DNA of 4,394 nt from Escherichia coli (GTDB taxonomy: Bacteria; Pseudomonadota; Gammaproteobacteria; Enterobacterales; Enterobacteriaceae). Below the pieces are notes generated by a model. The model saw only the letters and a list, made by a program, of their open reading frames with translations, was not told the DNA's origin and searched no databases. The first letter of the stretch is position 1. Every line of letters begins with the position of its first letter. The position numbers and the translations under genes were made by a program. Positions 4,091 to 4,225 of the stretch are shown here, piece after piece. The stretch lies in NCBI RefSeq assembly GCF_044324785.1, contig NZ_CP172132.1, one strand, 5' to 3'.

Positions 4091-4225
4091 GAAAACCTGT
4101 CGCTCCGGCGACCACCAATGTTCCATAGTGGCCTGTGAGGAACGCCTTCGGGTGGCCCACGTCGCTCCGGCGACCACCAATGCTCCATCTGACCTGTGAG
4201 GAGCGCCTTCGGGTGGTCAGTTTTA
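4091..4225 (+). ncRNA. Candidate ~135 nt structured small RNA covering the tandem hairpin repeats
   Basis: Lies downstream of the candidate promoter and contains two tandem units, each able to form a GTCGC-UCCG-GCGAC hairpin and a CC-UUCG-GG hairpin (UNCG-type loops only on this strand). It ends with a 6 bp stem CTGACC/GGTCAG followed by TTTTA. No protein-like ORF is present. Confidence 0.2.
4099..4220. repeat. Tandem direct repeat, two units of ~61 bp, each hairpin-forming
   Basis: Unit 1 is 4099-4160 and unit 2 is 4161-4220. They share GTCGCTCCGGCGACCACCAATG...CCATNN...CCTGTGAGGARCGCCTTCGGGTGG and differ mainly in the arms of a 6 bp stem (GTGGCC/GGCCCAC versus CTGACC/GGTCAG). Confidence 0.85.

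Follow-up and report, generated by a model that had tools for sequence, protein, structure and literature searches.

Among described non-coding elements, the closest to the locus considered here is the STAXI motif, an array in which a pseudoknot unit with UUCG tetraloops is repeated at least twice and for which the original description left undecided whether it acts as RNA or as single-stranded DNA (Weinberg et al. 2010; PMC2864571). Other STAXI copies give rise to transcripts in Pectobacterium RNA-seq (PMC4710047) and have been detected by RT-qPCR in STEC vesicles (PMC12370729); the literature that we found on the STAXI RNA names neither a function nor a partner. A second family, EFASI, has been described as located between STAXI, which precedes it, and an integrase gene, which follows (quoted in PMC12370729).

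The window analysed here, the whole 4,394-nt stretch of Escherichia coli DNA, is a small circular plasmid, and its positions 4098–4271 (+) almost certainly hold a member of the STAXI family. A cmscan search against Rfam aligned this segment with the complete model (RF01728, 1–153 of 153) at 78.9 bits (E 4.6e-16), far over the gathering score of 40.5 bits, and homologues in 12 other loci score 66–139 bits. Two complete units and one degenerate unit are present, with C(UUCG)G at 4146–4151 and 4207–4212. The tandem hairpin units that a first-pass annotation had picked out from the letters alone are an already catalogued motif, and thus a rediscovery rather than a new element; the tandem duplication, which it had called atypical for an RNAI, is a defining STAXI trait (PMC2864571). 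The likeness extends to the Enterobacterales host and to a homologous ICE locus with integrase-like and antirestriction genes. In contrast, the 4.4-kb plasmid of the window lacks the eponymous genes altogether, having no ssb, topoisomerase, antirestriction or XerDC-type integrase gene of its own. Taken whole, the best explanation, to which we assign a probability of roughly 0.8, is that of a STAXI RNA which belongs to a cassette shared with ICEs; that it serves as a multivalent platform is a more tentative proposal.

Each unit of about 61 nt would consist of a UNCG-capped 5-bp hairpin, an invariant unpaired CCAA and an H-type pseudoknot (S1 of 5 bp, S2 of 6 bp) enclosing a cUUCGg-capped 3-bp helix (Table 1). 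The units measure 62 nt (4099–4160) and 61 nt (4161–4221) and form a direct repeat with 96% identity between 4099–4126 and 4161–4188 and 93% between 4129–4155 and 4190–4216, a 1-nt indel separating the halves. Tandem Repeats Finder leaves the STAXI repeat of the window unlisted because it amounts to just under two copies. All coordinates and features that had been proposed for 4099–4225 were confirmed, including the UCCG-capped hairpins of 5 bp and the UUCG-capped ones, which are cUUCGg loops on 3-bp helices (4144–4153 and 4205–4214).

Table 1. Features of the STAXI region and its cassette (window coordinates).
Feature	Positions	Strand	Basis or detail
Predicted promoter (sigma-70 type) for the STAXI RNA	4055–4084	+	read from sequence
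Unit 1	4099–4160	+	pair listing; S1/S2 covariation across family; invariant columns
Unit 1, hairpin A	4099–4112	+	5 bp, UCCG loop
Unit 1, CCAA, invariant, unpaired	4115–4118	+	
Unit 1, pseudoknot helix S1	4120–4124 with 4139–4143	+	
Unit 1, outer helix S2	4128–4133 with 4154–4160	+	one bulged C
Unit 1, inner helix, UUCG cap	4144–4146 with 4151–4153	+	
Unit 2	4161–4221	+	repeat search, pair listing, family covariation
Unit 2, hairpin A	4161–4174	+	
Unit 2, CCAA	4177–4180	+	
Unit 2, S1	4182–4186 with 4200–4204	+	
Unit 2, S2	4189–4194 with 4215–4220	+	
Unit 2, inner helix, UUCG cap	4205–4207 with 4212–4214	+	
Four-U run after unit 2	4221–4224	+	
Degenerate third unit, terminal	4229–4271	+	Rfam alignment
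Conserved 3′ domain beyond the Rfam model	4289–4340	+	conserved across loci of several genera; folds
Terminator-like hairpin CCGGAUUUCGUCCGG with U-rich tail	4345–4372	+	terminator scan
EFASI RNA motif (RF02957)	357–510	+	48.6 bits, E 9.9e-08
Cassette spacer	1–356, continued from 4373–4394 across the circular junction	+	alignment of four cassettes
Segment shared with ICE, first part	4098–4394		continues as 1–557, 854 bp in total

The differences between the two units fall almost exclusively on paired positions. Both pairs singled out earlier keep their pairing, the one changing from G4131–C4156/7 to A4192–T4217 and the outer one from G4128–C4160 to C4189–G4220; the 6-bp stem needs one bulged C (4156 or 4157) in unit 1, whereas it pairs perfectly in unit 2. 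A third compensated change, T4121–A4142 to C4183–G4203, had been overlooked and lies in the pseudoknot helix. No pair is broken by any substitution that distinguishes the units, the remaining differences being an indel at 4127 and the bulge. In the degenerate third unit, a CUCC/GGAG stem (4229–4232 with 4244–4247) encloses the conserved loop AGCCUGAAAG, which is kept together with its complementary flanking arms in most of the arrays examined (those having the 3′ domain). Unit number and spacing vary among homologues, with one to three full CCAA-pseudoknot units per locus, and while the repeats of the window each have their own 5′ hairpin and a 61-nt period, other STAXI members are compact with a 46-nt period. 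The unpaired CCAA and G21, G23 and A24 are invariant columns in the family. A pattern scan of genome contigs for CCAAT N22-34 CGCCTTCGGGTG returned mostly chance matches in unrelated phyla; among the matches listed, only those in Erwinia psidii (L068) and Edwardsiella ictaluri (L076) are real.

Covariation was assessed on 26 distinct units from 13 loci and 14 pairs. In this set, 93.7% of the cells are paired and compensatory changes on both sides occur at 10 of the 14 pairs, including all five of the pseudoknot. The covariation score of 0.512 compares with 0.254 ± 0.018 in shuffles, none of 500 of which reached it, and drops to 0.19 or less when the partners are slid by one to three columns. 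The homologues thus bear out what had been proposed from two units only, namely selection on secondary structure and not on coding, in the form of pair-preserving substitutions that exceed both the shuffled and the slid controls.

The same pattern bears on two further readings of the repeats. Long ORFs do overlap the region, among them one of 195 aa (3711–4298, −) and one of 41 aa (4074–4199, +), as would be expected of an ordinary protein-coding segment; long ORFs also arise by chance in G+C-rich DNA. Neither unit period (62 or 61 nt) is divisible by three, the copies differ by a 1-nt indel, homologues differ in unit number and spacing, the ORF spans a mosaic junction at 4098 and substitutions keep pairs rather than codons, so that a coding origin is effectively refuted. 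Repeated binding sites in double-stranded DNA, for example arm-type sites of a XerC-like recombinase, iterons or partition repeats, were the second option, in line with direct repeats that have an invariant CCAAT-like core and adjoin a recombinase gene in ICEs. The compensatory pattern contradicts this earlier suggestion of a protein-binding site at the DNA level, as pair-preserving substitutions at 10 of 14 helix positions, pseudoknot included, are not predicted by duplex sites, and a cer/dif-like XerCD core was not found in the window. Nor can the units be taken for Rep-binding iterons: the true iterons of the plasmid, four copies of about 22 bp at 3128–3212 beside rep (2341–3033), are unrelated to the STAXI units, whose variation preserves pairs. 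We regard binding sites of this kind as a highly improbable explanation.

Which strand folds, and in which nucleic acid, is addressed by several features. Folding of both strands does not discriminate between them, with minimum free energies of −105.1 kcal/mol (z −2.3) for the + strand and −101.9 kcal/mol (z −2.8) for the − strand in a type of calculation that cannot show a pseudoknot. Across the family units, G.U pairs outnumber A.C by 31 to 6, an excess that becomes weak (10 vs 6) once the fixed G.U of the inner helix is left out. UNCG and GNRA loops are found on the + strand only. Both the G.U pairs and the UNCG loops thus single out the + strand and make an RNA more likely than single-stranded DNA.

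A predicted promoter points in the same direction as the earlier choice of the plus strand and of RNA as the most likely product. It comprises TTGATC (4055–4060), an 18-nt spacer and TAGTAT (4079–4084), with a predicted start at about G4091, and a −35/−10 pair stands at a fixed distance upstream in 15 of 16 STAXI arrays. On average, these match the consensus at 8.69 of 12 positions as against 6.11 ± 0.26 in shuffles (about 10 sd above), while other offsets or the antisense strand give only 5.8–6.2 of 12. The promoter is a consensus match, and 4055–4084 went unflagged in a generic promoter scan with a stricter rule.

We consider it likely, on these grounds, that the STAXI of the window works as RNA and not as single-stranded DNA. 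The opposite option, put forward by Weinberg et al. (PMC2864571), would have the + strand fold when unwound, be it during conjugative entry or during lagging-strand or rolling-circle synthesis, and act as a priming signal or recognition site. It fits a motif that is confined to conjugative elements and plasmids, with none in 50,697 phage records, and that neighbours genes for ssb, topoisomerase, ArdA/ArdC and a methylase, all in one orientation as is the case in leading regions. CTG is the start triplet of DnaG, and each unit contains a nearly invariant CTG that resembles it. Structured non-coding elements that adjoin ssb and antirestriction genes are also known from the transferred DNA of plasmid leading regions (Frpo/ssi; PMC11541004); those of the Frpo type, in contrast, consist of a long imperfect hairpin whose stem re-forms a promoter, whereas in STAXI small pseudoknots are arrayed behind a conventional linear promoter. 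It is this promoter of the double-stranded type, at a fixed upstream distance, that would have no role in a single-stranded element, and C(UUCG)G and GNRA loops stabilise RNA, not DNA (PMC2864571). The logic of strands also disfavours the single-strand initiation signal that had been listed as an alternative. Plasmid L002, of rolling-circle type, carries the motif on the strand opposite to rep; provided that it is the strand with the sense of rep that is nicked, the motif would not be displaced there. For ColE1 plasmids, the sense strand would serve as leading-strand template and not as the displaced strand. Function as single-stranded DNA accordingly appears unlikely.

As an RNA, STAXI (4098–4271) would form the 5′ domain of a non-coding transcript of about 280 nt, which is predicted to start near 4091 from the sigma-70-type promoter and to stop, probably, at 4345–4372, with partial termination possible at the U run 4221–4224. 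The conserved domain that follows the Rfam model contains a hairpin AUCUGC...GCAGAU (4289–4312), a second one within 4313–4336 whose sequence changes between loci while the hairpin form is kept, and a conserved GAUGAAGG at its end (4333–4340). The terminator-like hairpin further downstream is not conserved in every locus. We only infer the 3′ end from it for that reason, and in some ICEs STAXI may accordingly belong to an extended 5′ leader instead of forming a small RNA of its own.

Downstream of STAXI, on the same strand and across the circular junction, the window carries an EFASI motif at a distance of 480 nt, its score falling just below the gathering score of 51.2. This is a separate motif outside the tandem-unit finding. 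Its position agrees with the order described for the EFASI family, except that no integrase gene follows. The order and strand are the same in nine other loci (10 in total, gap 150–530 nt). Hairpins at 52–76, 76–94 and 130–168 of the intervening spacer are conserved in an alignment of four cassettes, the latter two with changes on both arms, and spacer folds reach −23 and −27 kcal/mol. A single BLAST alignment runs from 4098 through the junction to 557 and corresponds to 12001–12852 of the ICE locus L006 at 95% identity; 4098–4394 is 100% identical to the chromosome of E. coli APEC E19035. As judged from these alignments, the 854-bp segment is a non-coding STAXI→EFASI cassette common to the 4394-bp circular plasmid and a chromosomal PFGI-1/SGI4-type ICE of E. 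coli. In such ICEs, the cassette immediately precedes a gene for a XerC-like tyrosine recombinase (0.65 kb downstream in the locus with 95% identity, where ardA follows at 3.7 kb) that is missing from the plasmid.

This origin has consequences for the hypothesis of an RNAI-like copy-number regulator, in which an RNA from the + strand would anneal to the 5′ terminus of a primer RNA transcribed on the − strand towards a ColE1-like origin at about 3650–3770. The setting is suggestive: primosome-site and origin-like sequence of ColE1 type can be read at 3487–3770 in a fitting orientation, the units are some 330–560 nt from the origin-like sequence and hence roughly in RNAI's place, the + strand promoter and the U run after unit 2 would yield an RNA of about 135 nt, and three ColE1 plasmids have cassette and RNAI on the same strand. 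STAXI also shares with RNAI a small size, a fold with stem-loops, the + strand and the proximity to a fragment of a ColE1-like origin. Yet the window contains no match to the RNAI model (RF00106), even at E up to 10, while the same model detects RNAI at 77–94 bits in L129, L130 and L131. From 4098 on, the DNA is 95–100% identical to a chromosomal ICE without a ColE1 origin, and STAXI, unlike RNAI, sits in chromosomal ICEs that lack any such origin. Homology to Col(MG828) mini-plasmids stops at 3919–3945, before the units, and the related plasmid L001 retains 3956–4215 without 3570–3955. In three ColE1-type plasmids, of Pantoea, Rahnella and Cronobacter, a STAXI-EFASI cassette coexists with a canonical RNAI as a distinct locus, 0.7–1.6 kb away. 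The promoter scan gave no − strand promoter, and the plasmid has its own RepM/RepE-like initiator with iterons. The three loops of RNAI are kissing loops of 6–7 nt, unlike UNCG tetraloops; STAXI has tetraloops and pseudoknots, and tetraloops are unsuited to kissing complexes. A recognisable RNAI was not found in Col(MG828) mini-plasmids either, so the neighbouring ColE1-like block cannot place RNAI by homology. Of the first-pass annotation, selection on structure, the + strand and RNA therefore stand, whereas the RNAI-like regulator tied to the ColE1-like block finds no support; we rate it very unlikely.

As to the mode of action of the STAXI RNA, antisense pairing with a replication primer would not be involved. 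Instead, an array of two to five near-identical structured units may be a platform on which several molecules of a single protein or processing enzyme assemble, so that it would act as a sponge, a scaffold or a leader controlling downstream ICE genes. We suggest this multivalent protein-binding mechanism tentatively, because of the near-identical units and the invariant unpaired CCAA and UGNGA; a candidate binding protein is not encoded on the plasmid. CsrB/RsmZ are sponges and ToxI is the antitoxin of a type III toxin-antitoxin system whose units form pseudoknots. Both offer an analogy of mechanism only, with tandem structured repeats in variable copy number and invariant unpaired nucleotides, and neither has sequence similarity to STAXI. 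A CsrA sponge was rejected, as the GGA needed by CsrA lies in the covarying S1 strand and so is not conserved. A ToxI-like antitoxin was likewise dismissed, there being no toxin gene after the array in the window, L001 or L002, and no + strand ORF of at least 40 aa begins downstream of the array in the window before 335, the position of the next + strand ORF.

Alternatively, STAXI could be a cis-acting element for processing or stability, in which pseudoknot and CCA tail mimic a tRNA acceptor arm and are cleaved by RNase P or a comparable enzyme, separating or stabilising long ICE transcripts. RNase P substrates include the c4 RNAs. Such RNAs occur nearby, as noted by Weinberg et al., and the arrays themselves lie between co-directional genes, for instance in the order topoisomerase, STAXI, ICE replication protein and ssb, the Pectobacterium copy being annotated as a 3′ UTR of topB (PMC4710047). 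The invariant CCA is located 2–3 nt 3′ of a helix and beside a coaxial stack of about 11 bp; those 2–3 nt take the place of what would be a single discriminator base, and a CCA of the type in the window follows a 5-bp hairpin, too short for RNase P. Together with the failure of ARAGORN to find a tRNA-like gene, this renders a processing element improbable.

Returning to the cassette, its association with the recombinase gene differs between elements. In five of five loci on ICEs or large plasmids, the gene follows the cassette, the encoded proteins being as little as 46% identical, whereas six small plasmids with the cassette lack the gene; cassettes without the gene occur in at least three unrelated replicon types, namely Rep_3/iteron, HUH/rolling-circle-like and ColE1. 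NCBIfam models match the genes beside the arrays as an STY4534-family ICE replication protein and, weakly, as XerC-like, and the Rep of L002 has a weak IS91/HUH-like match. Taken by itself, a rediscovered motif adds little, and the interest of the window units as members of a known family is low to moderate. The fixed-distance promoter and the repeated capture of the cassette without the recombinase speak for an RNA-based role in the biology of ICEs; neither this promoter nor capture by unrelated plasmids was found stated in the published STAXI literature examined. Moreover, a whole STAXI-EFASI cassette on a 4.4-kb plasmid without ICE genes makes for a small, tractable test system.

A role in multimer resolution through host XerCD was among the rejected candidates: in addition to the window, most cassette-bearing plasmids lack a cer/dif-like core, so that such a role is unsupported, and the one core seen, in L131, lies outside the cassette. 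Complementarity of at least 9 nt between STAXI and the spacer, EFASI or the recombinase leader was not conserved across loci. It is conceivable, if decidedly doubtful, that STAXI and EFASI are RNA cofactors or regulators of the ICE XerC-like recombinase and that cassette-only plasmids exploit the recombinase or transfer machinery of an ICE in trans, so that a plasmid might, for example, be conducted after cointegration with the ICE, or be resolved. The synteny in five of five ICE-type loci and the capture by at least three replicon types are compatible with this idea. In this regard, Rahnella ColE1 plasmids with the cassette have no known mobilisation system, yet bear signs of frequent horizontal transfer (PMC2831885).

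The tandem repeat is a member of STAXI, an RNA family catalogued since 2010 (Rfam RF01728), whose model matches 4098-4271 (+) over its full length, scoring 78.9 bits where the gathering score is 40.5 (E 4.6e-16). As 297 nt of the window copy are, moreover, matched without a difference in RefSeq E. coli chromosomes, the feature is already known. Weinberg et al. (2010; PMC2864571) first described STAXI as a pseudoknot occurring in 2 or 3 repeats with abundant UUCG loops, neighboured in Enterobacterales by ssb, topoisomerase, antirestriction and XerDC-integrase genes, and kept both RNA and single-stranded DNA open as its acting form. 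Copies in Pectobacterium are reported to be transcribed (PMC4710047), and copies were detected in STEC vesicles by RT-qPCR (PMC12370729). The structure that the first-pass annotation deduced from raw sequence stands, its assignment to an RNAI-like family does not, and the tandem duplication it considered atypical is instead a hallmark of STAXI.

The halves of the two units are 96% and 93% identical and separated by a 1-nt indel. Each unit carries CCAAUG in an unpaired stretch and nests a C(UUCG)G-capped 3-bp helix inside its outer helix. Both compensatory changes reported earlier, G4131-C4156/7 to A4192-T4217 and the flipped outer pair G4128-C4160 to C4189-G4220, are real, and a third, U4121-A4142 to C4183-G4203, had been missed. 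The latter belongs to a helix of 5 bp that joins the stretch immediately 3′ of CCAAUG to the outer hairpin's 5′ internal loop and makes each unit an H-type pseudoknot. No pair-breaking substitution was found between units 1 and 2, and the probability that they are coding sequence is negligible.

Covariation was measured on this three-helix structure, pseudoknot included, in 26 distinct units. These came from 13 loci: besides the window, plasmids both small and large and integrative conjugative elements (ICEs), sampling the genera Escherichia, Klebsiella, Salmonella, Erwinia, Edwardsiella, Pantoea, Rahnella, Cronobacter and Serratia. Standard pairs fill 93.7% of cells, and 10 of the 14 pairs, among them all five of the pseudoknot, change on both sides. 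The covariation score is 0.512 versus 0.254 ± 0.018 after shuffling (reached by 0 of 500 shuffles), and it falls to at most 0.19 if partners are displaced by 1-3 columns. Covariation extends to the 5′ hairpin as well, as read from the extracted arrays (GUCGC/GCGAC, GUCAUC/GAUGAC, GUUGC/GCAAC, GUCGU/ACGAC, GUUGUC/GACAAC).

Folding energies of both strands did not discriminate between them; the plus strand and RNA are favoured by G.U excess, loop types and promoter position. G.U outnumbers A.C by 31 to 6, mostly because the inner helix has a conserved G.U at its base (10 versus 6 without that pair), and UNCG or GNRA loops form on the plus strand only. A -35/-10 pair precedes STAXI arrays at a fixed position, with 11-15 nt between the end of the -10 and the first hairpin, in upstream sequences that are otherwise unrelated; it has at least 8 of 12 matches in 15 of 16 arrays, with a mean of 8.69 versus 6.11 ± 0.26 for shuffled sequence and 5.8-6.2 when the offset is changed or the antisense strand is scored. 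Repeats bound by a protein as duplex DNA are a highly improbable reading.

Across the loci compared, the conserved RNA reaches past the 3′ limit of the Rfam model (see table), and an RNA of about 280 nt is predicted because a terminator-like hairpin with a U-rich tail lies 3′ of the conserved domain. A shorter species could arise from the U run at 4221-4224. An ORF of ~29 codons (4331-4394 joined to 1-24) begins in the conserved GAUGAUGAAGG and spans the junction; it is not conserved, as the matching position in the SGI4 and Erwinia loci holds 4 codons only, and is probably non-coding.

Features of the window and STAXI arrays of two further loci
Feature	Coordinates	Strand	Remark
Initiator, RepM/RepE-like	2341-3033	-	NCBIfam E 5e-51
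Four iterons, ~22 bp	3128-3212		ACCTTAAATTCCTCCACC
Three copies of A-rich repeat, 13-14 nt	3258-3302		AAAACAAGATCTTA
Predicted promoter	4055-4060; 4079-4084	+	TTGATC, 18-nt spacer, TAGTAT; predicted start near 4091
Unit 1, 62 nt	4099-4160	+	tandem repeat
Unit 2, 61 nt	4161-4221	+	tandem repeat
5-bp hairpin, UCCG loop	4099-4112; 4161-4174	+	units 1; 2
6-bp outer helix, unit 1	4128-4133 with 4154-4160	+	one bulged C
6-bp outer helix, unit 2	4189-4194 with 4215-4220	+
CUCC/GGAG hairpin around AGCCUGAAAG	4229-4247	+	conserved, part of extended RNA
Hairpin	4289-4312	+	conserved 3′ domain
Hairpin	within 4313-4336	+	sequence varies among loci, hairpin kept
GAUGAAGG	4333-4340	+	conserved
Terminator-like hairpin, U-rich tail	4345-4372	+	terminator scan
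STAXI arrays, L006 (APEC E19035 ICE)	11940-12236; 14242-14547
STAXI arrays, locus L008	2051-2221; 4525-4675

EFASI (‘Enterobacteriaceae, Frequently Around STAXI and Integrases’; RF02957) matches 357-510 (+) with 48.6 bits, narrowly missing its gathering score of 51.2, and published EFASI primers for STEC strain ED1284 (PMC12370729) match 389-408 and 456-475 exactly. A single alignment to the chromosomal ICE of E. coli APEC E19035 (95% identity) runs from 4098 across the window end to 557, so the window is a circularly permuted circular plasmid of 4394 bp, on which STAXI and EFASI lie 480 nt apart. Of the two mosaic junctions, one falls exactly at the first STAXI hairpin (4098) and the other at 557, ~47 nt 3′ of EFASI; in the ICE, the latter point precedes the recombinase start by ~100 bp. 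The 140 bp before STAXI (3956-4097), predicted promoter included, are shared at 88% with the small plasmid L001 and not with the ICE; this sequence comparison suggests that the plasmid array was rebuilt by recombination of a plasmid-type with an ICE-type cassette within the repeated hairpin/CCAAUG. The STAXI-EFASI spacer is conserved and hairpin-rich (52-94 and 130-168): the hairpin GCGUCACUUU...AAAGUGACGC reaches -27 kcal/mol, and Klebsiella is among the loci in which both arms of stems 76-94 and 130-168 differ. A single long, structured RNA may span the entire 0.85-kb cassette.

The ColE1-like block noticed nearby is genuine, with primosome-site-like and origin-like sequence at ~3487-3770. 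Its surroundings (3463-3945) are ~95% identical to ~1.5-kb Col(MG828) mini-plasmids and recur in over 1000 plasmid records; most of these are typed mobilizable, although many encode no relaxase. Rfam RNAI has no match in the mini-plasmids, whose control RNA, if any, is thus not catalogued RNAI. That the units themselves are an RNAI-like antisense copy-number regulator, as the first-pass annotation proposed, is very unlikely: Col(MG828) homology stops before them, ICE homology starts exactly at their first hairpin, the related L001 keeps 3956-4215 without 3570-3955, the RNAI model has no match in the window, and the plasmid has its own initiator gene and iterons. Furthermore, ColE1 plasmids of Pantoea, Rahnella and Cronobacter carry a canonical RNAI (77-94 bits) plus a separate STAXI-EFASI cassette. 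Cassette and RNAI share one strand in 3/3 of these, a sample too small for significance, so transcription of the cassette in them opposes the direction of replication.

The APEC E19035 ICE encodes TIGR03756/TIGR03757 ICE proteins, TraG and ArdA; in it, a 301-aa ‘integrase domain’ gene lies downstream of the cassette and is itself followed by a second STAXI array. Orthologues of this gene in SGI4 and a Klebsiella plasmid are weakly XerC-like, and the order STAXI, EFASI, recombinase is kept in five ICE-type loci at recombinase identities down to 46%. Six small plasmids have the cassette without the recombinase gene; small carriers comprise the window plasmid and L001, with a RepM/RepE-like initiator and iterons, L002, with an HUH-type Rep, and the three ColE1-type plasmids. 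Matches occur in 76 of 5426 complete E. coli genomes (median 5 places per genome), and no STAXI copy was found among 50,697 phage records. ICEs carry several arrays that each have a separate promoter-like site, and EFASI follows the first only; in locus L132, an array is followed by a STY4534-family ‘ICE replication protein’ gene and then ssb. An element for priming or recognition of single-stranded DNA would suit neighbours such as ssb and antirestriction genes and a distribution that is conjugative only, yet promoter, loop types and the strand logic in rolling-circle and ColE1 plasmids make it unlikely.

The fixed promoter position and repeated capture by unrelated small replicons point to an RNA role connected with ICE biology. 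The plasmid provides the STAXI-EFASI cassette free of ICE genes. The plus strand of STAXI combines a conserved pseudoknotted fold and a conserved promoter position with a variable number of near-identical units, whose invariant unpaired nucleotides are CCAA and UGNGA; in ICEs, synteny with EFASI and the recombinase gene is fixed. Tentatively, at a probability of about 0.35, we infer that the array would present a multivalent RNA platform to a protein or processing enzyme, in the form of either a small RNA or the leader of ICE genes. The CCA that lies 2-3 nt 3′ of a helix is invariant and would also fit a candidate tRNA-acceptor-like processing site for RNase P, a reading that we regard as improbable.

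Elsewhere on the plasmid, a 51-nt inverted repeat (1197-1247/1459-1509, 92% complementary), both arms of which are present in L001, flanks 211 bp and together with them looks like a miniature transposable element.
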